A DNA stretch of 64,000 nt from Candidatus Multivoradales bacterium (GCA_965223325.1 CBDCWI010000001.1:2080091-2144090), one strand, 5' to 3'; positions 42,131-64,000 are shown, numbered from the stretch's first letter. The notes: a model not told the origin generated them from the sequence alone. Numbers and translations: made by a program.

Positions 42131-42444
42131 CGCGCGGCGATGCCGCGCACGGTAGGGGGTAAGTATTGACGGCAACGCCAGACAAGGCGACGCGCCGAGT
42201 TCCGAAGCACTCCATCGTCCTCTTTCACCGCCTCGATGGTTGTCGCGAGGGCAGTAACCTTGCCTTCGCCACCCCCTGACACCTCGGCACTCCGCCCGAA
42301 AGACGCAGCTCCGCCATCGCACCAGTAGGTGCGTCCCCCTCAACCTCGTCAACCACCTCTTTACCGGCGGGCTGGACCGTCAGGGGCCGTCGCGTGCACC
42401 CGGCCCAGGCACTTCCAAGGCCACAAACGGTGGCGGGCTTGGGA
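42131..42444 (-). mobile_element. Remnant of family A element (terminus, 3' non-coding end, last codons of transposase)
   Basis: Starts cgcgcggcgatgccgcgcacggtagggggtaagtattga and aligns with 45196-45495. Confidence 0.9.
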
Positions 42445-42898
42445 AGTCCCCGGCCTCCCCAGCCTCGTGAGCGTGCGCACGCGTCACGAAGAAGCGGGCG
42501 GGCGCATCCGGGCCGCTAGGCCTCAGCCGCGGCGGTTCCTCTGCGGAGCCTCTACGTCCGATCCCCCCGCAGTCGGGGTCGGGTTACGTGGAGCCCATGC
42601 TCCACATCTTGCCAGCCTCCCATTCAACACACCCCCAGGATTCCGTGGCCGGCACGAGGACGCGCTAGAACTCCCCGGCTCCAGGGTTCCACCTTTCAGA
42701 CCTCCGGTCGGCAAAGGCCGACGAGATGGTCCGCCTTTCCAACCGCCGGAATCTCGAACCCAGGACCCGAAGTGCAATGCCGCCCGGGTTTCCGAGCGAT
42801 CGTCGCCAGAGCCAGCGGTACAATTGTCTGGACGAGAGCAGCGGTGTTTGCTGCATCAGCTCCATTGAATAACACTGTTGTACTGCCAGGAGGGACCC

Positions 42899-43213
42899 GT
42901 GATCGATGCCGAAGCGATCGACTGGCTCCGGCCATGGGAGAAGGTCGGAGATTCGGCGCCCGGCCTAGAACGTCAGTTGATTCGGGAGGTCGCCGAGGGC
43001 CACCCACTCTTCGGCCTCAGCGTCACCGCGTTTGCCCGGCGCAGCGATACGGACGATGTCCTCTTTGGTGTAGGTGTTTCGAAGGAGCGCCTCGCTGCAG
43101 TCCACCTGACATGGGGCGGCCGCCAGGAGCCGCCCCTACCAGGCACCGATCTGTTCGAATCATTCGAGTCTTTCAAGACTCAAGTCATGGAGCCAGATAA
43201 TGTCGGGGCCTAG
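42899..43213 (+). CDS. Integron-cassette hypothetical protein
   Basis: RBS aggagg; 'HPL...ARR.D.DDVLF...AVHLTW'; bounded by GTTGTACTGCCA (42877) and TGGCAGTACAAC (43219). Confidence 0.7.
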   Translation: MIDAEAIDWLRPWEKVGDSAPGLERQLIREVAEGHPLFGLSVTAFARRSDTDDVLFGVGVSKERLAAVHLTWGGRQEPPLPGTDLFESFESFKTQVMEPDNVGA

Positions 43214-43223
43214 GGCGCTGGCA

Positions 43224-43306
43224 GTACAACAACCACGTGCACTGGACAAGAACCCGCGCTCGCTGCGCTCGCCCGGGCTCTTGCCAGTGACGTTCGTCCG
43301 TTAGAC
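43224..43306 (+). other. Integron attC site
   Basis: R'' GTACAAC, arms acgt(G)cactgg/ccagtgacgt with an extrahelical base, central cgctcgctgcgctcg, R' GTTAGAC; 83 bp. Confidence 0.85.
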
Positions 43307-43311
43307 ACCTG

Positions 43312-44034
43312 ATGAACCGCCGCCGAGCAAGACGAGTAGCCGCCTTCGTCGGTGCGCCAATCGTTGGAACCATCGTGCTTGTGTGTATCCAGCTGTTCAC
43401 CTTGGTTTCCAGCGGGGTCGGCGGCCTTCTCGAACCTGAGGTGTGGGCGGGATTCATCTGGATCGCGCCTTATGCTCTGTTCATTGGTGTGGCCGCACAG
43501 ACTCTCATCGGCCTTCCGCTTCTCAGGGCCTTTCGTAGTCGAGGCTGGCTTTCGTCGCCAGCCTTCGCCGCCGGCGGTGCGGCTGTCGGGCTGATCCTGT
43601 TCCTCCTGCTCTATTGGGGCGACCGGCCTTTCCTGCCACGCTTAGCGTTCTGTGTCCTCCCTGCTGTTGCTGCATCGGTGTACTTCGGCCTCGTCGGGGA
43701 CTGGACAGCATGGAGCCGACGTGAACCCGCAGCCGCTTCGCGGCTTCGTGTTCCCGCGGCTCATGCCAGTCCGTTGTGCGGCCCCTACGACACGGCTGAG
43801 GCTCTGGTAGCCTCCGGGGAGGAGGCGACCATGAAGCAACGCGAGATCGAGAAGGTCTTCGAGGTCCTTGGGCTTTCTGGAGACGAGGGTGCCGCCGCGC
43901 AGCTGAAGACGCCGCGTCAACCCCAGCCCAAGCGGCTCGTGTTCATCGCGGCAGAGTCAACGTCACAGGCAACCGAGACCGAGGTACATGCCCAACTGGA
44001 ACGAGATTCTCAACGAGCTGAAGGAGGCGGGTAG
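43312..44034 (+). CDS. Cassette membrane protein (4 TM, to about 43710) whose ORF reads through the next attC into a small ORF
   Basis: ATG 5 bp after R'; hydrophobic to about 43700; no stop codon before the attC. Confidence 0.55.
   Translation: MNRRRARRVAAFVGAPIVGTIVLVCIQLFTLVSSGVGGLLEPEVWAGFIWIAPYALFIGVAAQTLIGLPLLRAFRSRGWLSSPAFAAGGAAVGLILFLLLYWGDRPFLPRLAFCVLPAVAASVYFGLVGDWTAWSRREPAAASRLRVPAAHASPLCGPYDTAEALVASGEEATMKQREIEKVFEVLGLSGDEGAAAQLKTPRQPQPKRLVFIAAESTSQATETEVHAQLERDSQRAEGGG
43700..43779 (+). other. Integron attC site with degenerate R''
   Basis: gcatg(G)agccg/cggctcatgc arms, agccgc-ttc-gcggct centre, R' GTTGTGC at 43773. Confidence 0.7.
43831..44034 (+). CDS. Small protein (67 aa) overlapping the protease gene
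   Basis: Strong RBS ggaggagg before ATG 43831; MKQREIEKVFEVLGLS... Confidence 0.55.
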   Translation: MKQREIEKVFEVLGLSGDEGAAAQLKTPRQPQPKRLVFIAAESTSQATETEVHAQLERDSQRAEGGG

Positions 44035-44893
44035 CGCACACGATGTCGTACGTCGGCGATACCTCAAGGGTCTCCACGAGCTGACGTCGCGCAACGTGAT
44101 CATCTACTACTCGGGGTGGCTTCAGAAGCAGGGGCTCGCTGGCGTTGAGGTCAACGATGCCGACAAGAACGGCTTCATGTCGGTCATCCACCAGCTCGAC
44201 AGGTCAAAGGGCCTCGACCTCATCCTGCACACGCCTGGCGGCGACTCGGCGGCGACAGAGTCGCTAGTTCACTACCTTCACGAAATGTTCGGGAAGGACA
44301 TACGGGCCATCGTGCCGCAGCTCGCGATGTCAGCCGGTACCATGATCGCTTGCGCCTGCAAGGAGATCATCATGGGCAAGCACTCGAGCCTGGGCCCGAT
44401 CGACCCGCAGTTCGGTGGCATCGCAGCTCATGGAATCGTCGAAGAATTCGAGAGGGCCCGGAAGGAGATCAGTGAAGACCCTTCCACCATCCCGATCTGG
44501 CAGCCGATCATCGCAAAGTACAGCCCGACTCTAATTGGTGAGTGCGAGAAGGCGATTTCATGGTCCGAGGAAATGACACGATCGTGGTTGCTAGAGGGCA
44601 TGCTCGAGGGTGACGAAAAGGCCACGGAAAGGGTCGACACCATTCTTCACGAGCTCGGCGATCACGCTGTGACCAAGTCTCATGCTAGGCACCTCTCGAT
44701 CAGCCACTGCAAGAGCATCGGCCTAAACGTGTCGGCACTGGAGGAAGACGACGATCTCCAGGAGGCAGTATTGTCACTTCACCACGCCTGCATACACACC
44801 CTTGGCTCGACAGCTGCGTTCAAGCTCATTGAGAACCACAACGGTGTTGCCTTCATCCAGTCTGCGCAGAACGTCGTGGTTCAGCAGGCCTAG
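43988..44893 (+). CDS. SDH family Clp-fold serine protease (cassette-borne)
   Basis: LDLILHTPGGD, VPQLAMSAGTMIA, SSLGPIDPQ, SHARH motifs. Confidence 0.85.
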   Translation: MPNWNEILNELKEAGSAHDVVRRRYLKGLHELTSRNVIIYYSGWLQKQGLAGVEVNDADKNGFMSVIHQLDRSKGLDLILHTPGGDSAATESLVHYLHEMFGKDIRAIVPQLAMSAGTMIACACKEIIMGKHSSLGPIDPQFGGIAAHGIVEEFERARKEISEDPSTIPIWQPIIAKYSPTLIGECEKAISWSEEMTRSWLLEGMLEGDEKATERVDTILHELGDHAVTKSHARHLSISHCKSIGLNVSALEEDDDLQEAVLSLHHACIHTLGSTAAFKLIENHNGVAFIQSAQNVVVQQA

Positions 44894-44895
44894 GC

Positions 44896-44908
44896 GGGGC
44901 CGCACAAC
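44896..44908 (+). other. Truncated attC (R'' end only)
   Basis: GGGGCCGCACAAC is the exact complement of GTTGTGCGGCCCC (43773-43785); no hairpin arms follow. Confidence 0.7.
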
Positions 44909-45195
44909 ACCTATGAGGTCCCCTGACGTCAAGAGGCAAACGTCTCCTAGCGGACGAGGTCCGTAGCGGTTTTCGGTCAGGTTTCGAATTCTGACTTTGG
45001 TTTCAGAGTGGGTGCGAGGCGAAGCCTCTGCACCAAACACCTATTGGGCCTCTGCCCTCGCTTTCGCGACGACTGCTGGCAGTGCCAGCGGACCAGAAAC
45101 ACATCGGTGCCCTCGTACCGTCCGATTCAAACCGTGCTGGTCACGCCCGGGAGCGCGCCGGAGTTGGTTGCCTGGTTCGGGTGAGGGGCAGAGAT

Positions 45196-46582
45196 CGCGC
45201 GGCGATGCCGCGCACGGTCGGGGGTAAGTTTTGACGGCAACGCTGGACTGGACGAAGCGCCGAGCCTTCGCGCGCTCCATCGCCCTCTTCTCCGACCTCG
45301 AGGGGCGGTGACGAAGGCAGAAACCTCGCCTTCGCCACTCCTGAACGTCGGTACTCCGCCCGACAAACGGAGCTCCGCCAACACACCGATCGGTGCGTCC
45401 CCCTCAACCTCTTCGCCGGTGGCCTGGGCCGTCAGGGACCGTCGCGTGCACCCGGCCCAGGCACTTCCAGGGCCACAAACGGCAGCGGGCTTGGGAAAGT
45501 TCCGGGGGGAAACCGCGCCTCCAGGTCACCACCCCACAGAAGATCGCGCGCCGCACGATGCGCTCGCCTCACCGCATCAAGAACCGAAAGCAGCCGATTG
45601 CGCTCGTACGAGTCCGATGCGATGACCCGAGGCCTCGGCCCCCAATCGAGCTTCCTCGGACGGCGCATCGGACTCACCTGTGTCGTCTTGTAGGCACCGC
45701 GAGGCCTAGTCCCCTCTCGTTTGTGGCGCGCCCGCGTCTTGTCCTCGATCGCAACAATCATCCCGCGGGCCCAGTCGAAGTACTCCTCGTCAGGGAGGTC
45801 CTCGAAGCACGGAAGCTTCGATAAAACGACCGTCTCGCGGCTCGAGAAGTCCTTTTCGCTCAAACGACGACCGGCTTTCGAGAAACGGGCACGACGAAGC
45901 GCTGAACGATCGACCCAGGTGCCCTCGAGCTCGAAGGTCCCTGACCACAACGCCTCCCCTACCGACACGCCTGGCCACTTGCGAGGTGAAGACACCAACC
46001 CCGCCTTGCAACCCTGGGCAAGGATGTAGCGGAAACGACGGCAGAGGTCCTTCTTCGCGTGACCGGGAAACGACGTCTTGTACGGCCCTTCCCATTTCGG
46101 ACCCTTCCACCCGCGCAGGATCCGTAGTTCCACACTCGTCTGGTGCTGAATGCGCCGCATGAAATCGGCCAGCTGCTGGGCATCGCGAGCGCCCAGCAAA
46201 AGGTGAGCATGATTGACCTGGTAGTCCAGGGCGTAGATCCGGATTTCGGTCTTTCGCTGCGCGCGACCGATGATCCCGATCAGCAGTTCGCGTAGATGTG
46301 ACGATGGCGCCAACAGGAAGAACCCGTTGACGATGCGCACCGTCACTTCGACGACTCCCCAACCGCTCGAGTCGGTGGGGACATACCTCAGTTGATGGGC
46401 CATGACTCTTCGCACGGAACCATCGATGCCTTGCAGGGAGCCGAATCTTAGCGGATGACCCTCGCCATCGACCAACTGTCATTTGTGAATCGGGCTACAC
46501 GTCAGGTCGGTGGCGAGTCCCGGCCCTGCGCCACAACTTCGACTCAAAACTTACCCCCGACTGTGCGCGGCATCGCCGCGCG
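45196..46582 (-). mobile_element. Family A HUH/Y1 element, copy A1, 39-bp TIRs
   Basis: TIRs 45196-45234 and 46544-46582 (1 mismatch), each with hairpin GCGCGGC-N3-GCCGCGC. Confidence 0.9.
45432..46403 (-). CDS. HUH/Y1 (IS200-fold, RAYT-like) transposase, family A
   Basis: VNHAHLLL (HUH), FRYILAQGCKAGLV..P..WPG.S (catalytic Tyr helix), FPPGTF tail. Confidence 0.85.
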   Translation of the reverse strand: MAHQLRYVPTDSSGWGVVEVTVRIVNGFFLLAPSSHLRELLIGIIGRAQRKTEIRIYALDYQVNHAHLLLGARDAQQLADFMRRIQHQTSVELRILRGWKGPKWEGPYKTSFPGHAKKDLCRRFRYILAQGCKAGLVSSPRKWPGVSVGEALWSGTFELEGTWVDRSALRRARFSKAGRRLSEKDFSSRETVVLSKLPCFEDLPDEEYFDWARGMIVAIEDKTRARHKREGTRPRGAYKTTQVSPMRRPRKLDWGPRPRVIASDSYERNRLLSVLDAVRRAHRAARDLLWGGDLEARFPPGTFPSPLPFVALEVPGPGARDGP

Positions 46583-47047
46583 CTCCCCTTCACCGAGTGT
46601 GCCCATCTGTTCTGGCCTGGAAACATGGCCCAGACCATCGCCATTGCGGCAACAGATCAGAATGACGCTCATGTCCTAAACACCTGCTTCGCTCCAGCCT
46701 CCAACAACACAATCGACTTTTCAGCCCCGGGCCAGGACATCGCAACCGTAGACAGCGCAAGCGACACAGCGGACGATTTCGACACAACAACCGGCACCTC
46801 TTTTGCGGCTCCGCTCGTTTCGGCGACTGCAGCACTCGCACGAGCGCTCTACCCTTCGATGACCCAAGACCAGTTCTATGATTACCTCAAGGACACTGTG
46901 ATCGACCTTGCGCCCACAGGCAAGGACGGCGCTTTCGGATGGGGTCGCCTACAAGCCGACGATACGCTTGACGCCGTGCCACAACTACTCTTCGAGGACG
47001 GTTTCGAAAGCGGGGATACCACCAGTTGGTCATCAACCGTGCCATAG
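46583..47047 (+). pseudogene. C-terminal fragment of S8 subtilase with DGFESG tail, truncated by A1
   Basis: FWPG...IAIAATDQND, DFSAPG, GTSFAAP; ends LFEDGFESGDTTSWSSTVP*; catalytic Asp and His missing. Confidence 0.85.
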
Positions 47048-48381
47048 CGGGTGCCTTCGGTTCATTACTGCTCCTTCCTGCACTTCTGGTTGGCGTACAG
47101 AACCGGCTGGAGGTCAGGGTCGTCGCGTCTAGCTCCACGCCGCGGCCCGGAGACTCCGCCACTTTGTTCGTGGGTCGACAACAACCGCAAGTTGAAGAAG
47201 GCACCGTCGTTTTTCGAGCACTTAGAAACGGCCCGGCGCCCTTCCCTCAAGGCCTCTACGCGTGGAAGCGTGGGGGACTCACTACGGTACTTGATGAGAA
47301 CACCACCCTTCCAGGTGGCGGAACGGTCAAGCGCGTGGGCTTTGACTTTCTCATCTCGAATGGCACGATCGTCGCAACGGTCGATGATGATGCCGACCTG
47401 CGCCGGCTGGTCACCTGGACCAGCGGCACTATCGAGGTGCTCCTTCGACAAGAGGACGTCTCCCAAGAAACAGGAGAGCCCTTCGGACGTTTCACTACCG
47501 CCGCGGCGAGCCCGCCAATTGTTGCGATCGTCGACGACGCGAGCACAACGCTCTCCCTCCTCGGCCAGGGAAACGTCACTACTGTTGCCGGTCCCACTAC
47601 CCCGGTGCCAGAGAGTTTTTCAGTGGGCTTCGCTGGAATCCTCGAGGCGGCCATGAACGAGGCGCAGCTGGTATTCGCGGCCGCGACTCTAGACGGCCCA
47701 GGCACAGGACCGGACGGCCTCTACCGCTACTCGAGCGGTGCACTGACGCGCATCGTGGACAGGTCCACCGGAGGACCAGTACCCGCCTCCACACTCAGCG
47801 ACTTCTCCAACGTCGTTGTGTACCGGCAAGAGGTCGCTTTCACGGCATCATGGAACACTCCGCTCGGAACCCAGCAGGGCGTCTTCCGGGTCGCAGAATC
47901 CGACGGAGAACCCGTCCTCTGGCTCGCTGCCGAAGATGAAATCGAAGGAGTAGCCGGCAAGGTCACCAGCATTCGAAACGTAGGCTTCTTCGAGGGGAAC
48001 CTGGTCGCCGACGTCCTCACCGACCAAGGCGAAAGGGGGCTCACACTCACCACAGCTCCCGGCGCGTCGTGCCCGCTACTCCTACCGTTCTTCGAAGAGG
48101 GCTTCATTGCTGAAGGCGGACCAGAGGAGCCAAGCTGGACGTCTGACGGAAGCACAATCGCCTTCTGGCTCCGCCGCCTGCTCCCGGATGAAGGAGGACT
48201 AGTTGGCGCCCAAGGTATCTGGACCGCGCAACGCAGCACGCACGAGATACCCGCGTTAAGCCCACTCTCGCTCGGACTTCTCGTCACACTTCTCGCTGCC
48301 AGCGCACTCCGAGCACTGAAAGGTAGCAGACGTGAGTTTCGCCAGCGCAACGGCCGGTACTGCAGACGGCCTGATCGGTGA
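47026..48381 (+). CDS. Secreted beta-rich repeat protein with IPTL-CTERM-like sorting signal
   Basis: C-terminal EIPALSPLSLGLLVTLLAASALRALK plus basic tail; hydrophobic leader. Confidence 0.7.
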   Translation: MVINRAIAGAFGSLLLLPALLVGVQNRLEVRVVASSSTPRPGDSATLFVGRQQPQVEEGTVVFRALRNGPAPFPQGLYAWKRGGLTTVLDENTTLPGGGTVKRVGFDFLISNGTIVATVDDDADLRRLVTWTSGTIEVLLRQEDVSQETGEPFGRFTTAAASPPIVAIVDDASTTLSLLGQGNVTTVAGPTTPVPESFSVGFAGILEAAMNEAQLVFAAATLDGPGTGPDGLYRYSSGALTRIVDRSTGGPVPASTLSDFSNVVVYRQEVAFTASWNTPLGTQQGVFRVAESDGEPVLWLAAEDEIEGVAGKVTSIRNVGFFEGNLVADVLTDQGERGLTLTTAPGASCPLLLPFFEEGFIAEGGPEEPSWTSDGSTIAFWLRRLLPDEGGLVGAQGIWTAQRSTHEIPALSPLSLGLLVTLLAASALRALKGSRREFRQRNGRYCRRPDR

Positions 48382-48494
48382 GAGGTGGTGCTGCGGCGAC
48401 GGCCGAGAACACACAACAAGGTAGCAGAAAGCGATCACGTGTACCGGGTAGTTCGGGCAACGCCCGAGGCTTCGCCTCGGAGACGTTCTCGGAG

Positions 48495-49994
48495 ACGTTC
48501 CAGGCAACTATGTTTCATAGCCATGCGAGGTTCACGCGCATGCCGGAATTCACGACTCGGATCCCTGAGCGAAGTCCGCGGCCATACTGAACATGCGCAA
48601 GCAGATCCGCACCAAACACCTCCTCAACGCGGCTCGACCACACCTCAAACCACCGTCCAAGCCAGTCCAAGCCGCTGCGCGGTTGACTGCGCCATAGCTC
48701 GCGCCGCGATCTCGTGATCGCCGTCCCCAAAAGACGCAACACTGAAGTCCTTCTATCCAGGAGCGCGAGCCGCGTGCGGAACGAACGCGCCACGCGGCGG
48801 GAAGCAACCTCGCGGGAACGCGACGTTCTCTTCACCCGAACGCAACCTACGCGCCGCCCTCCTGTACGCCACAACAAAATGCCAGCGGTTGACGATGAAC
48901 GCGACGCGCTGTTCCCGGGTGTGGGCGTGGCAGGCCGGGGCGGGGCTGCGCTTCGAATGGCGCGGAGCGGCGTGAGGGTCCTGGGCGAGGATCTTCTCGC
49001 CCATGCTCCGCCCGCCTTCGAGATCGAGGCGTTGGCCTGTCTCTTCCTCGATGTCTTCGATCATCGAGACGAGCATCTTGCGGTAGGTTTCGGCGCTCAG
49101 GTCGGCAAAGTGCGGCAGGGGCTCGAGAGTGAGCTCCTCGAGCGTCTCGAACTCGGTGATGTCGATCTTGCGATTCGCCTCACGACGCTCGCTCCGGCTC
49201 AGCTGTTTGGATCGCGGGCCGATCACTCCTCGGCGGACGCGCTCGTGGTACAAGCCGGTGCGATCTAGCCAGACGCCGGAGAGCCTCATCGAACCGTCGG
49301 CAAGAGCGCGAGCACTCGTCACACCAGGCCAGTCAAGCGGCGAATCAATCAGCCCTTCTTTGCAGCCCTGCGCCAAGACGTAGCGAAGGCGCTGGTACGC
49401 CGCTTGCGGCTCGTCGGTGAGTTCGATGCCCTGGTAGCGGCGACACCAGAACCGCTCGCGCCAGCGCTGCAACCGGCCAACCCGTCTCGCGATGTTTCCG
49501 TTGGTGAAACCCATGAAGCGCGAGATGTGCCATTGCGATGCGGCGGACAGCAAGAGATGGCAGTGGTTTGAGCCGAACCAGAAGGCGTGGACGCTCACTC
49601 CGTAGAGCCGCTGCGCACGAGCGAGGACGGCGATGATCTCGTTGTTGACTTCTTTGCTCGGCCGCAGGAGGAAACGCGACTGGAGGCAGCGCGTGGTGAC
49701 TTCGACGACGCGGTTGGGCGTGTAGATCCTGGGTTTGGCGAAACGCATGGGGAGGAAGCTGCCGTTGTTTGGCGAACTGGTTGTCGTACCTCCCGAGAAT
49801 CTGCGCTCTTGTTACGGCCCCCACCTTAGAGTGCCGTTGCTCCAAGCGGCTCGCGGCGCGTCGCGTGGCAGCACTACGCCGGTGGCACGCCGCTGGAGGC
49901 AAGGTGGCTCACTTTCCTGATGGCCGCTGACGCTCGTGAATCTCGGCAGGCGCGTGAACCTCGCATGGCTGTGAAACATGGTTGCCTGGAACGT
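48495..49994 (-). mobile_element. Family B HUH/Y1 element, copy B1, TIRs of about 60 bp
   Basis: acgttccaggcaactatgtttcatagccatgcgaggttcacgcgcatgccgg... matches the reverse complement of about 49934-49994; hairpin CCGAGGC-TTC-GCCTCGG at 48464-48480 lies just outside. Confidence 0.88.
48753..49748 (-). CDS. HUH/Y1 (RAYT-like) transposase, family B
   Basis: EVTTRC.Q.RFLLRP, SNHCHLLL, LRYVLAQGCKEGL...P.DWPGV, FP.GCFPP. Confidence 0.85.
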   Translation of the reverse strand: MRFAKPRIYTPNRVVEVTTRCLQSRFLLRPSKEVNNEIIAVLARAQRLYGVSVHAFWFGSNHCHLLLSAASQWHISRFMGFTNGNIARRVGRLQRWRERFWCRRYQGIELTDEPQAAYQRLRYVLAQGCKEGLIDSPLDWPGVTSARALADGSMRLSGVWLDRTGLYHERVRRGVIGPRSKQLSRSERREANRKIDITEFETLEELTLEPLPHFADLSAETYRKMLVSMIEDIEEETGQRLDLEGGRSMGEKILAQDPHAAPRHSKRSPAPACHAHTREQRVAFIVNRWHFVVAYRRAARRLRSGEENVAFPRGCFPPRGAFVPHAARAPG

Positions 49995-50045
49995 AGCCCG
50001 CCGCCGCCGTAGCCCGCCGCCGCCGCCGCCGGTCCCGAAGGGTCG

Positions 50046-52665: not shown

Positions 52666-52948
52666 ATGAAATGAGTCGGTCGGCCTCCCAGGCAGCTGAC
52701 AAAGTAGTCAGCTCGGTAACAGTCACGGAAGGAGACCGACCATGAGTTACTTTGGCATCGACGTCCATCTGAAGACCAGTGCGATCTGTGAGATCTCCGA
52801 AGAGGGCGCGGTCGTAGAGCGCTGCGAGATTCCCACGACGCAAGAGCGCATGCGGCGCTTCTTCGCCGATCGCACATGCAGAGGCATTGCTCTGGAGGCA
52901 TGCGCGCAGAGCCCGTGGCTGAACCGACTCTTGAGCGACCTGGGGGGG
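52666..52948 (+). mobile_element. IS110 family element, left end and 5' part of transposase (CDS from 52742), truncated by A2
   Basis: MSYFGIDVH...IALEAC.QS.W (DEDD RuvC-like N-terminus); RBS aaggag. Confidence 0.85.
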
Positions 52949-54343
52949 GCGCGGCGATGCCGCGCACGGTCGGGGGTAAGTTTTCATGGCAACGCCAGAC
53001 AAGGCGACGCACCGCGTTTCCGAAGCATTCCATCGTCCTCTTTCACCGCCTCGATGGGTGTCGCGAGGGCAGAGACCTCGCCTTCGCCACCCCTGAAACC
53101 TCGGCACTCCACCCGACAGACGCAGCTCCGCCACCACACCTGCCGGTGCGTCCCCCTCAACCTCGTCAACCTCTTCGTCGGCGGCCTGGACTCAGGGACC
53201 GTCGCGTGCACCCGGCCCAGCCACTTCCAGGGCCACAAACGGCAGCGGGCTTGGAAAAGTGCCGGGCGGGAACTTCGCCTCCAGGTCACCACTCCACAGA
53301 AGATCGCGCGCCGCGCGATGCGCTCGCCTCACTGCATCGAAAACCGAAAGCAGCCGATTGCGCTCGAACGAGTCCGACGCGATGACCCGAGGCCTCGGCC
53401 CCCAATCGAGCTTCCTCGGACGGCGCATCGGACTCACCTGCGTTGTCTTGTAGGCGCCGCGAGGCCTCGTTCCCTCCCGTTTGTGGCGCACCCGGGTCTC
53501 GTCCTCGATCTCAACAATCATCCCGCGGGCCCAGTCGAAGTACTCCTCGTCAGGGAGGTCCTCGAAGCACGGAAGCTTCGATAAAACGACTGTCTCGCGG
53601 CTCGAGAAGTCCTTTTCGCTCAAACGACGCCCCGCTTTCGAGAAACGGGCACGACGCAGCGCTGAACGATCGACCCAGGTGCCCTCGAGCTCGAAGGTCC
53701 CTGACCACAGCGCCTCCCCCACCGACACGCCTGGCCACTTGCGCGGTGAAGACACCAACCCCGCCTTGCAGCCCTGGGCAAGGATGTAGCGGAAACGACG
53801 GCAGAGGTCCTTCTTCGCGTGACCGGGAAACGACGTCTTGTACGGCCCTTCCCATTTCGGACCCTTGAACCCGCGCAGGATCCGTAGTTCCACACTCGTC
53901 TGGTGCTGAATGCGCCGCATGAAGTCGGCCAGCTGCTGGGCGTCGCGAGCGCTCAGCAATAGATGCGCGTGATTGACCTGGTAGTCCAGGGCGTGAATCC
54001 GGATCTCGGTCTTTCGCTGCGCGCGGCCGATGATCCCGATCAGCAGTTCGCGTAGGCGTGACGATGGCGCCAACAGGAAGAACCCGTTGACGATGCGCAC
54101 CGTCACTTCGACGACTCCCCAACCGCTTCCGTCGGTGGGGACATACCTCAGTTGATGGGCCATGACTCATCGCACGGAACCATCGATGCCTTGCAGGGAG
54201 CCGAATCCTAGCGGATGACCCTCGCCATCGACCAACTGTCATCTTGTGAATCGGGCTACACGTTGGGCCGGTGGCGAGTCCCGGTCCTGCGCCACGACTT
54301 CGACTCAAAACTTACCCCCGACTGGGCGCGGCATCGCCGCGCG
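52949..54343 (-). mobile_element. Family A element, copy A2
   Basis: TIR with hairpin at both ends (from 52949 and 54305-54343). Confidence 0.9.
53192..54163 (-). CDS. HUH/Y1 transposase, family A
   Basis: Near-identical to 45432-46403. Confidence 0.85.
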   Translation of the reverse strand: MAHQLRYVPTDGSGWGVVEVTVRIVNGFFLLAPSSRLRELLIGIIGRAQRKTEIRIHALDYQVNHAHLLLSARDAQQLADFMRRIQHQTSVELRILRGFKGPKWEGPYKTSFPGHAKKDLCRRFRYILAQGCKAGLVSSPRKWPGVSVGEALWSGTFELEGTWVDRSALRRARFSKAGRRLSEKDFSSRETVVLSKLPCFEDLPDEEYFDWARGMIVEIEDETRVRHKREGTRPRGAYKTTQVSPMRRPRKLDWGPRPRVIASDSFERNRLLSVFDAVRRAHRAARDLLWSGDLEAKFPPGTFPSPLPFVALEVAGPGARDGP

Positions 54344-54406
54344 ATCAGCGACGGCACGGTAGGCTTTCCCCTTTGGGACGACCCAGAACCGCCGGCTGTG
54401 AGCTAA

Positions 54407-55647: not shown

Positions 55648-55693
55648 ATGAAATGAGTCGGTCGGCCTCCCAGGCAGCTGACAAAGTAGTCAG
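55648..55693 (+). mobile_element. Second IS110 left-end fragment
   Basis: Same as 52666-52711 (atgaaatgagtcggtcggcctcccaggcagctgacaaagtagtcag), with the same upstream hairpin context. Confidence 0.8.
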
Positions 55694-55725
55694 TTCGCGC
55701 GGCGATGCCGCGCACGGTAGGGGAT

Positions 55726-57110
55726 CGCGCGGCGATGCCGCGCACGGTCGGGGGTAAGTTTTGACGGCAACGCTGGACTGGACGAAGCGCCGAGCCTTCG
55801 CGCGCTCCATCGCCCTCTTCTCCGACCTCGAAGGGCGGTGACGAAGGCAGAAACCTCGCCGTCGCCACTCCTGAACGTCGGTACTCCGCCCGACAAACGG
55901 AGCTCCGCCAACACACCGATCGGTGCGTCCCCCTCAACCTCTTCGTCGGCGGCCTGGACTCAGGGACCGTCGCGTGCGCCCGGCCCAGCCACTTCCAGGG
56001 CCACAAACGGCAGCGGGCTTGGAAAAGTGCCAGGCGGAAACTTCGCCTCCGGGTCACCACCCCACAGAAGATCCCGCGCCGCGCGGTGCGCTCGCCTCAC
56101 CGCATCAAAAACCGAAAGCAGGCGATTGCGTTCGTACGAATCCGACGCGATCACCCGAGGCCGCGGCCCCCAATCGAGCTTCCGCGGGCGGCGCATCGGA
56201 CTCACCTGCGTCGTCTTGTAGGCACCGCGAGGCCTCGTGCCCTTTCGCTTGTGGCGCACCCGGGTCTCGTCCTCGATCTCTACAATCATGCCGCGGGCCC
56301 AGTCGAAGTACTCCTCGTCCGGGAGGTCCTCGAAGCACGGAAGCTTCGATAAGACGACCGTCTCGCGGCTCGAGAAGTCCTTTTCGCTCAAACGACGCCC
56401 CGCTTTCGAGAAACGAGCACGTCGAAGCGCGGAGCGGTCGACCCACGTGCCCTCGAGCTCGAAGGTCCCTGACCACAGCGCCTCCCCCACCGACACGCCT
56501 GGCCACTTGCGCGGTGAAGACACCAACCCCGCCTTGCAACCCTGGGCAAGGATGTAGCGGAAACGACGGCAGAGGTCCTTCTTCGCGTGACCGGGAAACG
56601 ACGTCTTGTACGGCCCTTCCCATTTCGGACCCTTCCACCCGCGCAGGATCCGTAGTTCCACACTCGTCTGGTGCTGAATGCGCCGCATGAAGTCGGCCAG
56701 CTGTTGGGCGTCGCGAGCGCCCAGCAGAAGGTGAGCATGATTGACCTGGTAGTCCAGGGCGTGAATCCGGATCTCGGTCTTTCGCTGCGCGCGGCCGATG
56801 ATCCCGATCAGCAGGTCGCGTAGGTGTGACGATGGCGCCAACAGGAAGAACCCGTTGACGATTCGAACCGTCACTTCGACAACTCCCCAACCGCTCGAGT
56901 CGGTGGGGACGTATCTCAGTTGATGGGCCATGACTCTTCGCCCGGAGCCATCGATGTCCTGCAGGGAGCCGAATCTTAGCGGATGACCCTCGCCATCGAC
57001 CAACTGTCATTTGTGAATCGGGCTACACGTCCGGTCGGTGGCGAGGCGTCGCACTGCGCCACAACTTCGGCTCAAAACTTACCCCCGACCGGGGGCGGCA
57101 TCGCCGCCCG
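55726..57110 (-). mobile_element. Family A element, copy A3 (extra terminal hairpin unit at 55696-55723)
   Basis: TIRs present; right hairpin is GGGCGGC-ATC-GCCGCCC. Confidence 0.9.
55960..56931 (-). CDS. HUH/Y1 transposase, family A
   Basis: As A1 and A2. Confidence 0.85.
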   Translation of the reverse strand: MAHQLRYVPTDSSGWGVVEVTVRIVNGFFLLAPSSHLRDLLIGIIGRAQRKTEIRIHALDYQVNHAHLLLGARDAQQLADFMRRIQHQTSVELRILRGWKGPKWEGPYKTSFPGHAKKDLCRRFRYILAQGCKAGLVSSPRKWPGVSVGEALWSGTFELEGTWVDRSALRRARFSKAGRRLSEKDFSSRETVVLSKLPCFEDLPDEEYFDWARGMIVEIEDETRVRHKRKGTRPRGAYKTTQVSPMRRPRKLDWGPRPRVIASDSYERNRLLSVFDAVRRAHRAARDLLWGGDPEAKFPPGTFPSPLPFVALEVAGPGARDGP

Positions 57111-57270
57111 CCTCCTTGACGACGATCGTCTCTTGCCAGCCTCGTCGCTCGAGGAACTCGCGCAGCTGGTGCAGCTGCATGGCGATGGTGTGCTGATGCG
57201 GGGTAGAAACCCGCGCATACAGACCGACCCGAGGCGAGGCCTCGGGTCGGCTGGGGGAGGGGTGGCCAAA
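57111..57270 (-). pseudogene. N-terminal fragment of serine recombinase (resolvase), truncated by A3
   Basis: RVGLYARVSTPHQ.TI.MQL.QLREF.ERRGW motif with catalytic Ser. Confidence 0.8.
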
Positions 57271-57377
57271 AACCCCCTCGTCAGACGGCGATTTCAGGCC
57301 AGTGTTTCCGGGGGTCGAGGGAGGTCGGTTTCGGCATGGCCGAAACCTATACCTTTTGGCCATTCGCGGGTCGTAGA

Positions 57378-58022: not shown

Positions 58023-59937
58023 TGGTATCGCCCGTTTCGAAGCCGTCCACCCAGACATAGCCGTCGGCAACATATACCGCTGCCCCAGCGTCGACCAGAC
58101 CGCATTCGGGCTCGGGTTCTGGCGGAGATTCCTGGGCCCAGTTAGGAAGCTTCCGCGACGTGGCACACATGATGATCTCAACCTGGGACGGACTGAGGGA
58201 GCCCTCCGTTGCCAACACCAGAGCTGCCGTTCCGGCCACGAATGGCGCAGCGAAAGAAGTGCCGAACGCTCCCCTTGTGTAGTTCCCGTCGTACAGCTGC
58301 GTGTCCGAGCATGTGGTCTCCCCTCCGGGGAGGGTATTGACCGCGCCGTCGCGACAGTCAGGATCTGTCGTCAGAAGACCTTTCCCCGGGGCGGCGAAGA
58401 GCACCCTAAAGCCGGGCGCTGGTGATGTGTTCCAGTTGCTTCCATTCGAGGCGTCGTCGCGCTAGCGAGCTCCTGTTATGTCGATGGCCCCAACGGCATT
58501 GACGCTCTCCAGGTTCGCAGGAAACGTTGGCTCGGGAAAGTTGTTGTTTCCAGCCGAAGCGAACGCGATGACTCCGGCATCACGGATCTGGTTGTAGGCG
58601 AGTTCGATGGCGTTTCCTGTGAAGAGTTGCCAGCTGTGCACGGTGACCTGTGCTCCGCCCATGCCGCCAGACCAGGTGATCGCGCTCGCTACTTCGTCAG
58701 CATCTTGATTGGCTTGCCAGCCGCACGACACGGTTGTGCCTGGCCCCGGATCCTCCAGCCAGTCGATCCAGTGAGCTCGTGCCGCCACGACCGAACCTTC
58801 AGGAACTACGCCGATACCACCGATCTGTGCGCCGGAATCAGTGTTGTTCATCATCCCAACCATCCCCGCGACGTGGGTTCCGTGCCACTCACAGTTGACG
58901 GGATCATCATCTGGATCGGGAAGCCACTTGTCTGCATCGTGCCGATGGTGGCCTGTCCCTGTGGCGGTGCCGCCTTCGCCCGCGAAGTTCTTTCCGGCCA
59001 GCGCCTGAAGATCTGGATGCTCAAGGTCGATGCCGTTGTCGATGACGGCTACCCTGACGAGAGGGTTGTTCGAGGCATCGCCACCGGCGCAGAGGTCCCA
59101 CGGGCGCGCTCGCCCCCCGCGGCCGGGACGACGCCCCCGGTGGATCTCAACTTCCCTCAGGACGTCAGCGAACTGCCGCTCTTCGCCTTGGTTTCTCTCT
59201 AGCTTCGGTGCGAATCGCGCTCTTCCAGATGGTCCAGCTCCCACTAGACGCGAAGACTCGAGGTACAGAACCGGGGAGTTCTGGTTGACCCAAGTGTCTT
59301 CCAGGAAAAGGAGCATCTGATCACCCTTCTTCGGTGGCGCCTGCCAGTGCTCGTCTACAACGCACAGGCTTCGGCTTCGCATCTTGATGCGCCCGGCCGG
59401 CACGAACACATAAACTGCTTCGCGCGGTGCAAGCTCTCCGTTCCGAACTTTGATGTCCTCGAGCTCAAGTAAGGTCCCAGCTTCTTGAAACAGGAATCCA
59501 CCTTTGCTTCTTGAGACGCGGGCATGGACGACGATTTGTGTCTCCGCGATCACGTCGTCCAAGCGTTCGTGGCTTTCCGGGGGTTTCGTTCGATCAAGGT
59601 GGGTTCTTAAGCTCGGACAGCCACTGTCCGACGAGGTCGCCTGTCTGAAATATCCCTCAACACTGGACTGAGTCGCGTCGCTGGCTCCCACCAACGTAAC
59701 TTCCCCATTGGGCCCCTCGAGGATCCGGTCTTCGGAGAAGAAGATCGGATCGTTGCCGTACACCGCTTCAAAGAAAACGAGATCGGGAAACGGCGACGCT
59801 TCGTCAGTCGCGACGGCCCCGGCGGCGTGCATGACGGCGGCGGTCACGATAACCGCAACCAGATACTTGAACGGTAGATACGACTTCTGGCGGTCGTGGT
59901 CTCTCAAGGGCACTCCTCCTTCATGTTGAGGGAACAA
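57997..59937 (-). pseudogene. S8 subtilase with DGFETG tail, split by one in-frame TAG
   Basis: VAVIDNG, HGTHVAG, SAGN before the TAG at 58462-58464; AAPG, GTSFAAP and VDGFETGDTNEWSSTVP* continue in the same frame. Confidence 0.85.
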
Positions 59938-60142
59938 ACTCTGGGGCCGTGAACGCAGACCCTTAGGGCTGTTGTGGTTCTACCCTGCCGGTATGAGTCA
60001 CTCGATCTGTTGATGGCAAGGGGTCCCGGCTGAAGGAGGGGCCAGTCGGGATGATCCGCGGGATGAATAGCGTGCCACGTGGCAGCCGCTGTGTCCAGAA
60101 GCGGTTAGAGGGCGATCGGCCCCCAACCCATCGGAGACCCGA

Positions 60143-61635
60143 GACGCTCCAGGCACCCATGTTTCATAGCCATGTGAGTTTCACGCGCATGCCGAGATTC
60201 ACGAGTCGGATCCCGGAGCCAAGTCCGCGGCCCCTACTGAACATGCGCAAGCAGATCCGCACCAAACACCTCCTCAACGCGGCGCGACCACGCCTCAAAC
60301 CACCGTCCAAGCCGGTCCAAGCCGCGGCGCGGTTGACTGCGCCATAGCTCGCGCAGCGATCTCGATCGCCGTCCCAAAAGACGCAACACTGAAGTCCTTC
60401 TATCCAGGAGCGCGAGCCGCGTGCGGAACGAACGCACCGCGCGGCGGGAAGCAACCTGGCGGGAACGCGACGTTCTCCTCACCCGAACGCAACCTACGCG
60501 CCGCCCTCCGGTACGCCACAACAAAACGCCAGCGGTTGACGATGAACGCGACGCGTTGTTCCCGGGTGTGGGCGTGGCAGGCCGGGGCGGGGCTGCGCTT
60601 CGAATGGCGCGGAGCGGCGTGAGGGTCCTGGGCGAGGATCTTCTCGCGTCCCATGCTCCGCCCACCTTCGAGATCGAGGCGTTGGCCTGTCTCTTCCTCG
60701 ATGTCTTCGATCATCGAGACGAGCATCTTGCGGTAGGCCTCGGCGCTCAGCTTGGCAAAGTGCGGCAGGGGCTCGAGAGTGAGCTCCTCGACCGTCTTCG
60801 AACTCGGTGATGTCGATCTTGCGATTCGCCTCGCGACGCTCGCTCCGGCTCAGCTGTCTGGATCGCGGGCCGATCACTCCTCGGCGGACGCGCTCTTGGT
60901 ACAAGCCGGTGCGATCTAGCCAGACGCCCGAGAGCTTCCTCGAACCGTCGGCAAGAGCGCGAGCACTCGTCACACCGGGCCAGTCAAGCGGCGAATCAAT
61001 CAGCCCTTCTTTGCAGCCCTGCGCCAAGACGTAGCGCAGGCGCTGGTAGGCGGCCTGCGGCTCGTCGGTGAGTTCGATGCCCTGGTAACGGCGACACGAG
61101 AACCGCTCGCGCCAACGCTGCAACCGGCCCACGCGTCTCGCGATGTTTCCATTGGTGAAACCCATGAAGCGCGAGATGTGCCACTGCGATTCGGCGGACA
61201 GCAAGAGATGGCAGTGGTTTGAGCCGAACCAGAAGGCGTGGACGCTCACTCCGTAGAGCCGCTGCGCACGAGCCAGGACGGCGATGATCTCGTTGTTGAC
61301 TTCTTTGCTCGGCCGCAGGAGGAAACGCGACTGGAGGCAGCGCGTGGTGACTTCGACGACGCGGTTGGGCGTGTAGATCCTGGGCTTGGCGAAACGCATC
61401 GGGAGAAAGCTGCCGTTGTTTGGCGAACTGGTTGTCGTACCTCCCGAGAATCTGCGCTCTTGTTACGGCCCCCGCCTTCGAGGGCCGTTGTTCTAAGCGG
61501 CTCGCGGGGCGTCACGTGGCGTACTAACGCCGCTGGAGGCAAGGTGGCTCACTTTCCTGACGGCCGCTGACGCTCGTGAATCTCGGCAGGCGCGTGAACC
61601 TCGCATGGCTGAGAAACATAGGTGCCTGGAACGTC
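60143..61635 (-). mobile_element. Family B element, copy B2
   Basis: TIRs 60143 to about 60205 and about 61573 to 61635; colinear with B1. Confidence 0.88.
60400..61399 (-). pseudogene. Family B HUH/Y1 transposase, frameshifted
   Basis: Extra base at about 60797 (gtcttcgaac vs gtctcgaac in B1) splits the ORF. Confidence 0.85.
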
Positions 61636-61680
61636 GCCATGCCAGGCGAAGTCTCGGCGACGGCGATACGATGGGACACG

Positions 61681-62481
61681 ATGCTTGTATTGCACTCTGG
61701 GTCGGGCGCCCAAGATGTCGAAGTGGTGGAGGGAGAGGTACTTGAGGCCTCCGACCTTGACGAGATCTTCTTCACAGCAACCCGTCTGCTGACCGCCCGC
61801 GCTGAGCTTGAGGCTGCCGCGCTACTCCTCACGACCGGCTTCGGCGTTCGTGCGGCACAGAACCACTTTGGCGACGAGTTCGAGGTGCTACATGCGACCG
61901 TCTCTCTTGAGCACTACGAACACCTCAGGATCGCGTCGCAGGACGATAGCTACCGGCGCAGCTTCGGTCTGGTAGCTGACGCCGTCAATGAGATCGCACG
62001 CTATGTCCACGTACGCCATGTGGTCGTCGAGCTCGAGCGAGTAGTCCCTCCTCGGGACTGGCACCGAGACTTCGAGAAACTGATGGTACGGCTGACGGCA
62101 AACCAAGCCCTCTTCTCCTTCCAAGACGCTTCGAAGATCCGCTATCAGGGGCTGAACTTCCGGTCGAGAACGGAGATTCGTGTGTTCGACAAGCTCGTCT
62201 CGGCGGGACTCCTTGTGTTCCCGCTCCCAGTTAGCGTCATGGGGGCGCCTCGGACATACAAGGAGCCAGACTTCGTCGTCGTCAAGGACGGCAAGGTTGG
62301 GATCTTGGAGATTCATGGCGACAAGTGGCATCCACCAGAGACGGCTGCGAAGGAACACGAGCGGCGCCGCGAGTTCACCGCCCTGGGGATAGGTGCCTAC
62401 GAGATCTTCGATGCGAAGCGATGCCAGCAAGACCCCGCGGGCGTCGTAGCGGAGTTTCTCAAGGCGATGGAGAGAGCCTAG
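61681..62481 (+). CDS. PD-(D/E)XK nuclease (Vsr/DUF559-like C-terminus), cassette-borne
   Basis: FRS..E.R, EPDFVV, LEIHG..WH....A.E..R; attC directly downstream. Confidence 0.7.
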   Translation: MLVLHSGSGAQDVEVVEGEVLEASDLDEIFFTATRLLTARAELEAAALLLTTGFGVRAAQNHFGDEFEVLHATVSLEHYEHLRIASQDDSYRRSFGLVADAVNEIARYVHVRHVVVELERVVPPRDWHRDFEKLMVRLTANQALFSFQDASKIRYQGLNFRSRTEIRVFDKLVSAGLLVFPLPVSVMGAPRTYKEPDFVVVKDGKVGILEIHGDKWHPPETAAKEHERRREFTALGIGAYEIFDAKRCQQDPAGVVAEFLKAMERA

Positions 62482-62493
62482 CTCGTCATGGCC

Positions 62494-62576
62494 ACACGAC
62501 AACCAGCTGCACTGGATGTGAACCCGCGCTCGCTTCGCTCGCTCGGGCTCGCACCAGTGAGCTTCGTCCGCTAGCG
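62494..62576 (+). other. Integron attC-like site (degenerate core sites)
   Basis: 83 bp, colinear with 43224-43306 with compensatory arm changes; R'' ACACGAC, R' GCTAGCG. Confidence 0.75.
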
Positions 62577-62586
62577 GGACAGGTAC

Positions 62587-62664
62587 ATGACGAGTCATTC
62601 AGCAGCATCTCTCTTCGAGAAGAACATCGAGAGCGCGGAGCACTGCCTCCACGTTTATGACATC
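62587..62664 (+). pseudogene. 5' end of the next cassette ORF, interrupted by A4
   Basis: ATG 10 bp after attC: MTSHSAASLFEKNIESAEHCLHVYDI, then the A terminus. Confidence 0.5.
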
Positions 62665-64000
62665 CGCGCGGCGATGCCGCGCACGGTCGGGGGTAAGTTT
62701 TGACGGCAACGCTGGACTGGACGAAGCGCCGAGCCTTCGCGCGCTCCATCGCCCTCTTCTCCGACCTCGAAGGGCGGTGACGAAGGCAGAAACCTCGCCG
62801 TCGCCACTCCTGAACGTCGGTACTCCGCCCGACAAACGGAGCTCCGCCAACACACCGATCGGTGCGTCCCCCTCAACCTCTTCGTCGGCGGCCTGGACTC
62901 AGGGACCGTCGCGTGCGCCCGGCCCAGCCACTTCCAGGGCCACAAACGGCAGCGGGCTTGGAAAAGTGCCAGGCGGAAACTTCGCCTCCGGGTCACCACC
63001 CCACAGAAGATCCCGCGCCGCGCGGTGCGCTCGCCTCACCGCATCAAAAACCGAAAGCAGGCGATTGCGTTCGTACGAATCCGACGCGATCACCCGAGGC
63101 CGCGGCCCCCAATCGAGCTTCCGCGGGCGGCGCATCGGACTCACCTGCGTCGTCTTGTAGGCACCGCGAGGCCTCGTGCCCTTTCGCTTGTGGCGCACCC
63201 GGGTCTCGTCCTCGATCTCTACAATCATGCCGCGGGCCCAGTCGAAGTACTCCTCGTCCGGGAGGTCCTCGAAGCACGGAAGCTTCGATAAGACGACCGT
63301 CTCGCGGCTCGAGAAGTCCTTTTCGCTCAAACGACGCCCCGCTTTCGAGAAACGAGCACGTCGAAGCGCGGAGCGGTCGACCCACGTGCCCTCGAGCTCG
63401 AAGGTCCCTGACCACAGCGCCTCCCCCACCGACACGCCTGGCCACTTGCGCGGTGAAGACACCAACCCCGCCTTGCAACCCTGGGCAAGGATGTAGCGGA
63501 AACGACGGCAGAGGTCCTTCTTCGCGTGACCGGGAAACGACGTCTTGTACGGCCCTTCCCATTTCGGACCCTTCCACCCGCGCAGGATCCGTAGTTCCAC
63601 ACTCGTCTGGTGCTGAATGCGCCGCATGAAGTCGGCCAGCTGTTGGGCGTCGCGAGCGCCCAGCAGAAGGTGAGCATGATTGACCTGGTAGTCCAGGGCG
63701 TGAATCCGGATCTCGGTCTTTCGCTGCGCGCGGCCGATGATCCCGATCAGCAGGTCGCGTAGGTGTGACGATGGCGCCAACAGGAAGAACCCGTTGACGA
63801 TTCGAACCGTCACTTCGACAACTCCCCAACCGCTCGAGTCGGTGGGGACGTATCTCAGTTGATGGGCCATGACTCTTCGCCCGGAGCCATCGATGTCCTG
63901 CAGGGAGCCGAATCTTAGCGGATGACCCTCGCCATCGACCAACTGTCATTTGTGAATCGGGCTACACGTCCGGTCGGTGGCGAGGCGTCGCACTGCGCCA
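62665..64000 (-). mobile_element. Family A element, copy A4 (second TIR beyond the window)
   Basis: Appears identical to A3 at a constant offset of 6939 bp. Confidence 0.9.
62899..63870 (-). CDS. HUH/Y1 transposase, family A
   Basis: Translation identical to the A3 ORF. Confidence 0.85.
   Translation of the reverse strand: MAHQLRYVPTDSSGWGVVEVTVRIVNGFFLLAPSSHLRDLLIGIIGRAQRKTEIRIHALDYQVNHAHLLLGARDAQQLADFMRRIQHQTSVELRILRGWKGPKWEGPYKTSFPGHAKKDLCRRFRYILAQGCKAGLVSSPRKWPGVSVGEALWSGTFELEGTWVDRSALRRARFSKAGRRLSEKDFSSRETVVLSKLPCFEDLPDEEYFDWARGMIVEIEDETRVRHKRKGTRPRGAYKTTQVSPMRRPRKLDWGPRPRVIASDSYERNRLLSVFDAVRRAHRAARDLLWGGDPEAKFPPGTFPSPLPFVALEVAGPGARDGP

Follow-up and report, generated by a model that had tools for sequence, protein, structure and literature searches.

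In most accounts, RAYT-type enzymes, the tyrosine transposases associated with repetitive extragenic palindromic (REP) sequences, are domesticated relatives of IS200 transposases and occur in single copy. The insertion sequences (ISs) of the IS200/IS605 group have no terminal inverted repeats (TIRs), both of their hairpins lie on one strand, and their transposase TnpA is about 150 amino acids (aa) long and free of extra domains. RAYT-like genes flanked by TIRs have also been reported: Di Nocera, De Gregorio and Rocco named such genes TIRYTs and the loci TIRtrons in 2013, and their paper describes a GGGGWSAS motif in many, not all, of the published TIRs and one acidobacterial TIRYT group (PMC3733652). 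Here we describe family A, a multicopy element found in a 64,000-nucleotide stretch of Candidatus Multivoradales bacterium (GCA_965223325.1, CBDCWI010000001.1:2080091-2144090; hereafter the window), which forms the final 64 kb of contig C1 in a 6.69-Mb genome of two contigs (C1 and C2) with 64% GC. With a probability of about 0.75, we read family A as an autonomous, IS-like element of the TIRtron type, whose one gene encodes a RAYT-like HUH/Y1 transposase for single-stranded DNA (ssDNA) from a distinct clade of ~310-aa proteins, and which works in the manner proposed below. What appears to be new is the clade to which the protein belongs, together with TIRs that are tipped by a hairpin. TIR-flanked RAYT-like genes are already known, and family A is an unusual and so far unstudied branch of them.

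A direct-repeat search and BLAST returned four ~1.39-kb copies of family A (A1 to A4) and a 0.32-kb remnant in the window (Table 1), at the places given in a preliminary description of this DNA. As that description had also reported, each copy carries a 323-aa open reading frame (ORF) with the motifs NHAH and YILAQG, which we confirmed from its ATG; it is the single ORF of the 1.39-kb unit, which has room for no second. The copies are not all identical, their nucleotide identity being 88–100%. Genome-wide, family A amounts to 10 full-length copies and at least 16 fragments and solo tips; nine of the full copies keep an uninterrupted 323-aa frame, at 96–100% aa identity, and one is broken. A3 and A4 are 100% identical across 1336 bp and have different left flanks, and A4, at the extreme end of the contig, needs long-read confirmation. 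The remnant is 80–89% identical to the first ~320 bp of other family A copies. In all, 51 translated matches to the transposase were found in this genome, falling into at least three subfamilies (family A, subfamily 2 and family B).

Table 1 Family A and family B features of the window (positions counted from the first nucleotide of the window)
Feature	Position	Strand	Remarks
Family A remnant	42128..42454	+	Transposase-distal tip (GCCC replaces GATC, hairpin intact, core) and ~280 bp of interior
Family A copy A1, 1393 bp	45193..46585	-	TIRs 45193-45235 and 46543-46585; right tip tetranucleotide GCTC
A1 transposase ORF, 323 aa from ATG	45432..46403	-	Open frame extends to upstream TTG at 46475
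Family B element	48464..50005	-	331-aa Y1 protein, 36% identical to the A2 protein (P0001); ORF 48753-49748
Family A copy A2, 1402 bp	52945..54346	-	Left tip GGGG replacing GATC; right tip GATC
A2 transposase ORF (P0001, 323 aa)	53192..54163	-	HUH N64-H65-A66-H67; catalytic-type Tyr Y126 (YILAQGCKAGLV)
Partial tip	55692..55722	+	GTTC, hairpin and ACGGTAGGG; directly before A3
Family A copy A3, 1391 bp	55723..57113	-	ORF 55960-56931; right hairpin stem compensated, GGGCGGC/GCCGCCC
Second family B copy	60140..61648	-	94% identical to the first; Y1 reading frame broken
Family A copy A4	62662..64000	-	Truncated where the window and contig C1 end; ORF 62899-63870

The family A end is a 43-bp inverted repeat, composed of GATC, the GC-rich hairpin GCGCGGC-GAT-GCCGCGC (7-bp stem, 3-nt loop) and AC-GGTCGGGGGTAAGTTTTGA, and inverted at the opposite end. 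A hairpin-bearing inverted repeat had been recognised at both ends in the preliminary description, where it was given as 39 bp; GATC precedes the hairpin and brings the repeat to 43 bp. The tip layout is N-GATC-hairpin-ACGGTCGGGGGTAAG, and the TIR core after the hairpin is GGTCGGGGGTAAG. TIR-like instances number only 43 in the whole genome, mostly on family A copies or fragments; GATC stands before the hairpin in 22 of them and the base preceding it is variable, so that the border of the element is set outside GATC. The genome-wide alignment of copies and flanks that had been proposed as a check defined the ends at N|GATC: in all full copies, similarity ends at the same base on either side, exactly at the outer edge of the terminal GATC. 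No direct repeat of the flanking bases was present at any family A copy, in agreement with the earlier statement that target duplication is absent.

The transposase belongs to the HUH/Y1 enzymes. Its score for Pfam Y1_Tnp (PF01797) is 26.3 bits, just above the cut-off of 23, and 55 of 65 family members match this profile. NCBIfam REP_Tyr_transpos (NF047646) was matched with an E value of 3e-8 and 33.6 bits, below its cut-off of 80, and NCBIfam IS200 (NF033573) with 0.003 and 17.7 bits, below its cut-off of 55, while the family profile matched ISDra2 TnpA at 2.5e-6 and the TnpAREP structure 4ER8 at 1.9e-4. The AlphaFold model of the 323-aa protein (pLDDT 94.9, pTM 0.91) has fold matches to 4ER8, 2XM3 and 2VHG. 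Its best PDB match is E. coli TnpAREP, 4ER8 (Foldseek E 3.3e-6, TM-score 0.73), with a VIA-align Z of 14.5 over 156 aligned residues at a root-mean-square deviation of 2.8, compared with a Z of 8.4 for IS608 TnpA. Fold and profiles both lie on the RAYT side, and the enzyme is therefore RAYT-like and not halfway to IS200, contrary to the earlier placement of the element as an intermediate between IS200 and RAYT.

Among the 65 members, H65, Y126, W143-P144-G145 and F298-P299 are invariant and H67 is nearly so, and the consensus around the tyrosine is RLRYLLxxGxKEGLV. The family A motif YILAQG is of the type Y-x-L-x-[QH]-G, the consensus being Y-L-L-x-x-G with no N-P. The tyrosine of a canonical RAYT-like gene of the same genome (247 aa, YTLLNPVRAGLV) aligns with Y126, at 22% identity. 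The C-terminal 175 aa gave no Pfam match, Y1_Tnp being the one family matched by any of the 65 members, and none of the 65 matched helix-turn-helix (HTH) families of Pfam at E<=0.01. Folded alone, the C-terminal part (pLDDT 82, pTM 0.50) had no match in the PDB (best VIA Z 3.5; no Foldseek match at E<=0.001), a result that does not show its fold to be new and is compatible with a diverged HTH. In an exhaustive search, cluster representatives numbered 2153 at a threshold of E<=0.001, falling to 825 at E<=1e-10 and to 144 at E<=1e-30; almost all of the top 150 have 290–330 aa and align from end to end. The in-frame TAG codons seen in many homologues were considered as a case of recoding, which was ruled out: the aligner had read through the natural stop codon.

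The enzyme was also modelled as a homodimer, with an ipSAE of 0.60 against 0.00 for the best of three controls; of proteins solved as one-chain pairs, 20 of 30 attained 0.60, as did one of 23 solved as single chains. The runs agree on at least 96% of the contacts, and the pLDDT of the partner is at least 87. In the predicted interface, residues 297-313, which are the FPxGxFPP tail, are joined by residues 25-27, 73-76, 99-102 and 105-106, and the conserved C-terminal tail is thus predicted to form the homodimer. TnpAREP is reported as a monomer, in contrast to the dimer predicted for family A, and the predicted interface consists of a C-terminal tail that IS200 TnpA lacks.

The comparison with described systems places family A closest to the TIRtrons. 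Every complete copy has a RAYT-like Y1 gene between TIRs, not REPs, as the definition of a TIRtron demands, and a small number of additional ends occur dispersed over the genome. Compared with the published GGGGWSAS, the G-rich cores of family A (GGGGTAAG) and subfamily 2 (GGGGGGAC) each match seven of the eight positions. To our knowledge, TIRYTs have been named and never studied biochemically. Most TIRYTs belong to TnpAY1 subclass 2.1 of Quentin et al. (2018), for which the median length is given as 238 aa, the Y motif as Y[IV]xLNP, the copy number as ~1.9 per genome with 49% identity between copies, and the C-terminus as HTH-like (Bac_DnaA_C, HTH_23 or HTH_28), Y-x-x-x-N-P being common to all class 2 TnpAY1 (PMC6006769). 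Family A differs in its 323 aa, its YILAQG motif, the absence of an HTH match, the 175-aa C-terminal part without PDB match, its 10 copies at 88–100% identity and the hairpin at the very tip of the TIR. The same source describes class 3 from Acidobacteria and Planctomycetes (178 aa, Y-x-x-x-x-Q, CnGA-footed structures), said there to resemble both ISs and REPtrons, and subclass 2.3 from Chromatiales and Alteromonadales (~325 aa, several copies per genome, NHYH, YVDLNP, core insertions) (PMC6006769). Family A shares a Y motif with Q and an acidobacterial host with the former, and length and multicopy state with the latter; its protein conforms to neither of the two descriptions. Some members of the ~310-aa clade may already be contained in the data sets of these studies. 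We found no description of the ~310-aa clade in the literature on TIRYT, TIRtron, RAYT and TnpAREP, subscription journals and supplements lying outside this search. The RAYT-like genes with TIRs named in 2013 (PMC3733652) mean that the new IS class proposed in the preliminary description does not stand.

With RAYT/TnpAREP, family A shares the best structural match (4ER8), KAGLV after the catalytic Tyr with the W that follows, and an association of the enzyme with inverted GC-rich hairpins. It departs from them in lacking Y-x-x-x-N-P, in being twice as long and multicopy and in scoring below the NCBIfam RAYT cut-off; its hairpins are contained in 43-bp TIRs, and there is no high-copy REP/REPIN population. 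RAYT groups have 1.3–1.8 copies per replicon according to Bertels et al. (2017; PMC5581495). The likeness to IS200/IS605 elements (IS608 and ISDra2 TnpA) extends to the HUH/Y1 core fold, profile similarity, a multicopy one-gene organisation, hairpins near the ends, a lack of target duplication and, apparently, a short target motif akin to the end of the element itself. Family A departs from that group in its 43-bp inverted repeats, its 323-aa protein and the weaker fold match noted above.

Family A is a real multicopy element, IS-like and probably still mobile. At least eight distinct family A junctions were found, some of them within other repeats and within copies of family A itself. The left end of A2 adjoins a 69-aa N-terminal fragment of an IS110-type gene (Pfam DEDD_Tnp_IS110, E 0.0012; the match is below the cut-off because the fragment is short), and the right end of A1 adjoins a C-terminal fragment of a subtilase (residues 172-288 of 288 of the Peptidase_S8 profile). 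The ends had been described as abutting four kinds of truncated gene; the IS110-type and subtilase genes were borne out, and the 'resolvase' and 'cassette ORF' had no Pfam match in the scanned ORFs. The left tip of A1 cuts off a 300-bp piece of another repeat (44886-45197), of which five fuller copies lie on C2 (~3820231, 3825914, 4167695, 4171097 and 4400496). A further subtilase gene, at 58380-59937 on the minus strand, has an S8 domain that runs into a stop and continues in another frame downstream; this break, of which the element is not the cause, is either a frameshift or a sequencing error.

For eight tips, an uninterrupted paralogous sequence exists in the genome, in one case by a weak match of 86%. 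At the N|GATC border these uninterrupted sequences read GGTC, GCTC, GGTC, GGTC, GAGC, GGTA, GCGC and GAAG, with G as the first base in all eight and GGTC in three. Within the TIR, the hairpin is likewise followed by GGTC, which could pair with the GATC of the tip by way of one G-T pair. In IS200/IS605 elements the target equals the left cleavage site, and by analogy the family A junctions suggest that the target may be chosen by the same read-out as the element's own end.

We also examined contigs from four public runs of one study, probably of the source sample. These contigs break at the tips and hold the flanks of other copies as loose ends, and words internal to the element reach up to ~12 times the depth of the flanks. 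The assembly lacks two of these loose-end flanks. In one of the two, the IS110-type frame that A2 truncates runs on, so that this flank represents the unoccupied form of the A2 site. Three joints with sides of 21–27 letters were found, of which just the joint 52975->52949 was interpreted; its 'ATC' reproduces the duplicated tip before A3. No contig skips an element and no tip-to-tip joint occurs, although such contigs cannot reveal rare forms and are uninformative on excision. Of the earlier claim of an autonomous mobile IS class, the IS-like one-gene unit with precise tips therefore stands, together with the junctions, the 100%-identical pair with different left flanks and the ~12-fold word depth; the novelty of the class does not.

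The mechanism of cutting and joining that we infer would proceed as follows. The enzyme would act as a homodimer held together by the conserved C-terminal FPxGxFPP tail, each subunit recognising one single-stranded tip, namely the 7-bp hairpin and the adjoining GGTCGGGGG core. Y126 would cut at the outer edge of the terminal GATC, and the element would be rejoined at targets that start with G, often GGTC, without target duplication. With its ends inverted, the element would offer one and the same substrate pair on either strand. Recombination or end-mediated deletion among the many same-oriented copies would later have scrambled one flank of most copies. We put forward tentatively, as a possibility that is still rather doubtful, that the ~310-aa Y-x-L-x-[QH]-G clade as a whole would be an unclassified group of HUH/Y1 transposases and a true IS family of Acidobacteriota, Myxococcota and Bdellovibrionota, acting as a tail-swapped dimer on hairpin-tipped ends and reaching G-N-T-C targets (preferably GGTC) through its own GATC/GGTC end read-out, with one-sided junctions as a result; if true, this would be a single-tyrosine HUH transposition pathway distinct from both IS200/IS605 peel-and-paste, which has a circular ssDNA intermediate, and RAYT/REPIN behaviour. 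With three related subfamilies that differ in their ends, numerous copies, nested insertions and a confident model of the protein, this genome is a good natural test set for how a single-Tyr ssDNA enzyme handles inverted ends, for the role of the hairpin and GATC/GGTC, and for that of the tail in the dimer.

Several findings weigh against our reading, the first of them the one-sidedness of the junctions. All eight interpretable junctions lie at the transposase-distal tip, a pattern not predicted by simple cut-and-paste, and in none of the three testable full copies (A1, A2 and C2:4460884-4462283) is the interrupted sequence resumed in the transposase-proximal flank. Such one-sidedness would follow from recombination or end-mediated deletion among numerous copies of the same orientation, and also from one-ended, rolling-circle-like replication by an HUH mechanism as in IS91/ISCR, with one active tip and copying that overruns or deletes the other. 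A replicative origin of this kind would also fit the 2.8-kb unit of A2, its 1.38-kb flank and the start of the next copy, which is duplicated at C2:4475033-4472267 with its left border exactly at the tip and with differing left flanks, and the many fragments that retain one tip and stop at variable internal points. We nevertheless consider it unlikely: IS91/ISCR enzymes have two catalytic tyrosines and their elements different ori and ter ends, whereas family A has a single invariant Tyr and tips that are equivalent inverted repeats, fragments with only the other tip occur, homologous recombination or deletion among ~20 same-oriented copies in one region would give the same picture, and the sample of junctions is limited to repeated DNA. 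Likewise unfavourable to our reading, no excision product, circle junction or clean empty/filled pair with both flanks was found. An empty-site search in relatives, which had been proposed at the outset, was run and produced no clean empty site: for one subfamily 2 copy (L013), the left flank is kept in five of five related genomes and the right flank maps elsewhere.

The second group of unfavourable findings concerns how the copies multiplied. Several arose by segmental duplication: A2 and C2:4473644-4475038 are segmental duplicates with 2.8 kb in common, right flank included, and A3 and C2:4462507-4463885 share their right flank. The copies diverge by up to 12%, so that much of the amplification is old. 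In other Acidobacteriota, an inverted repeat of 18–20 nt within 450 nt was present at just three of 17 loci, and in one genome (G032) the similarity of most of the 10 copies is confined to the ORF. Such findings would accord with a family that is not, or no longer, mobile, made up of domesticated RAYT-like paralogues and their recognition repeats multiplied mainly by segmental duplication, the more so as A2 and A3 each have a flank-sharing duplicate, as copies differ by 5–12%, as eight of the 10 full copies are confined to one repeat-dense region over two contig ends, and as RAYTs are generally viewed as domesticated (PMC5581495). This explanation seems to us distinctly improbable, since similarity ends at the same base at both tips despite unrelated flanks, the copies interrupt the IS110-type gene, the subtilase gene, another repeat and other family A copies, two dispersed copies lie far off (C1:1727145 and C2:2354593), A3 and A4 are identical, and the public-run contigs hold flanks absent from the assembly.

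The remaining points against an active, hairpin-directed element concern the hairpin and the dimer. Of the 43 TIR-like instances, 22 have a canonical stem and 27 are fully paired if G-T pairs are counted; one, at the right end of A3, is compensated on both sides and, as had been described, still fully paired, two have a change in the 3' half only, and at least eight are disrupted. The covariation claimed in the preliminary description thus comes down to one compensated event and is weak. The folding energy of the hairpin is not unusual for its GC content (z -0.71 against shuffled sequence), the ends of subfamily 2 in this genome are without a tip hairpin, and the dimer is a prediction made on an alignment built for this analysis. 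The family B tip hairpin, which has the same geometry and a different stem, is better support for a functional hairpin than the covariation within family A.

Inverted repeats of ~40 bp at both ends are generally the hallmark of insertion sequences with DDE-type transposases, and the ends could in principle be substrates of such an enzyme acting in trans, with the Y1 gene as a passenger. This is very improbable: no copy has a target duplication, the element holds no second ORF, each of the three Y1 subfamilies has ends of its own that change along with the protein, and a G-rich core related to GGNGACTT recurs beside homologues in other genomes.

The location of the elements bears on the assembly itself. 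Along the whole of C1 the GC skew is negative, and over the final 1.05 Mb of C2 it is positive, which indicates that the ends of C1 and C2 face each other, so that the elements probably broke the assembly. The contig ends, of which that of C1 is also where the window stops, are probably joined head to head within a repeat-dense region of >100 kb (on C2, C2:4438000-4546094), in which the family A and family B copies all have the same orientation. The elements thus appear to drive the rearrangements that split the assembly into two contigs. Tandem 'stutters' of the tip occur at three places: 31 nt before A3 (55692-55722), 10 nt at the right tip of A3's duplicate on C2 (C2:4462492-4462540) and 12 nt at the first family B element (48481-48492). 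The partial tip before A3 may be either the stump of an older copy interrupted by A3 or such a stutter, and an uninterrupted paralogue of it lies at C2:4472298-4472250.

Related transposases are multicopy in the same order, with matches in 27 of 41 genomes (this one counted), often many and up to 24 in each. A contig scan with an eight-sequence alignment, which reached only near relatives with two motifs, gave 18 loci in named records, all of them metagenome-assembled genomes of Acidobacteriota (Thermoanaerobaculia, Holophagales, Marinacidobacterales and Multivoradales). Neighbours in the ESM Atlas are clusters of ~300–323 aa, in which the few members with a classification belong mostly to Acidobacteriota, Myxococcota or Bdellovibrionota. 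Short recurring motifs aside, long TIRs were absent at nine loci from relatives (E<0.003); flanks in other genomes carry shorter inverted or arrayed motifs with the related core GGTGCCAGGCGAyTT.

Family B elements, of which two lie in the window, are ~1.5 kb long and present in seven or eight copies genome-wide, mostly at C2:4438300-4483425 and often inside or beside family A copies. Their proteins are 34–38% identical to those of family A, and their ~40-bp TIRs are unrelated to the family A TIRs. The tip hairpin at 48464-48480 is CCGAGGC-TTC-GCCTCGG, with a 7-bp stem and a 3-nt loop, and recurs at five of eight left ends; further tip stems are CCGAGG-CCG-CCTCGG and, at right ends, CCGAGGC-GAA-GCCTTGG and CCCCGC-CAG-GCGGGG. 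Subfamily 2 consists of eight dispersed copies (L011-L018; C1:205213, 581177, 904523, 970231, 1242649 and 1917428; C2:785095 and 1927916), with proteins 60–65% identical to that of family A. Two tandem CAGTCGGGGGGACTTTCCC motifs stand at one end and one or two inverted at the other, and after the outer CAGTCGGGGGGACTTTCCC motif comes a small stem, in the variants CCCAC/GTGGG and CCCGC/GCGGG. By GC skew, six of the eight dispersed subfamily 2 genes are co-directed with the leading strand, which is not significant.

Two further loci carry related sequences. The canonical RAYT/TIRYT-like gene with the motif YTLLNPVRAGLV is single-copy (C1:1305500-1307300, gene at 542-1282 of this interval); the same array, made up of CCCGGGCGyTT units and terminated by GACTGGGGTGATTCTTGGGAATCTCGGG, stands on either side of it, the two arrays lying in direct and not in inverted orientation. 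At C2:2016000-2027500, four or five repeats of ~300 bp lie in one orientation with no Y1 gene between them; they end in a family-A-like tip (GATC and a slightly altered hairpin) fused to the subfamily 2 core GGTCGGGGGGACTTTCCC, and may be gene-less derivatives or solo ends.

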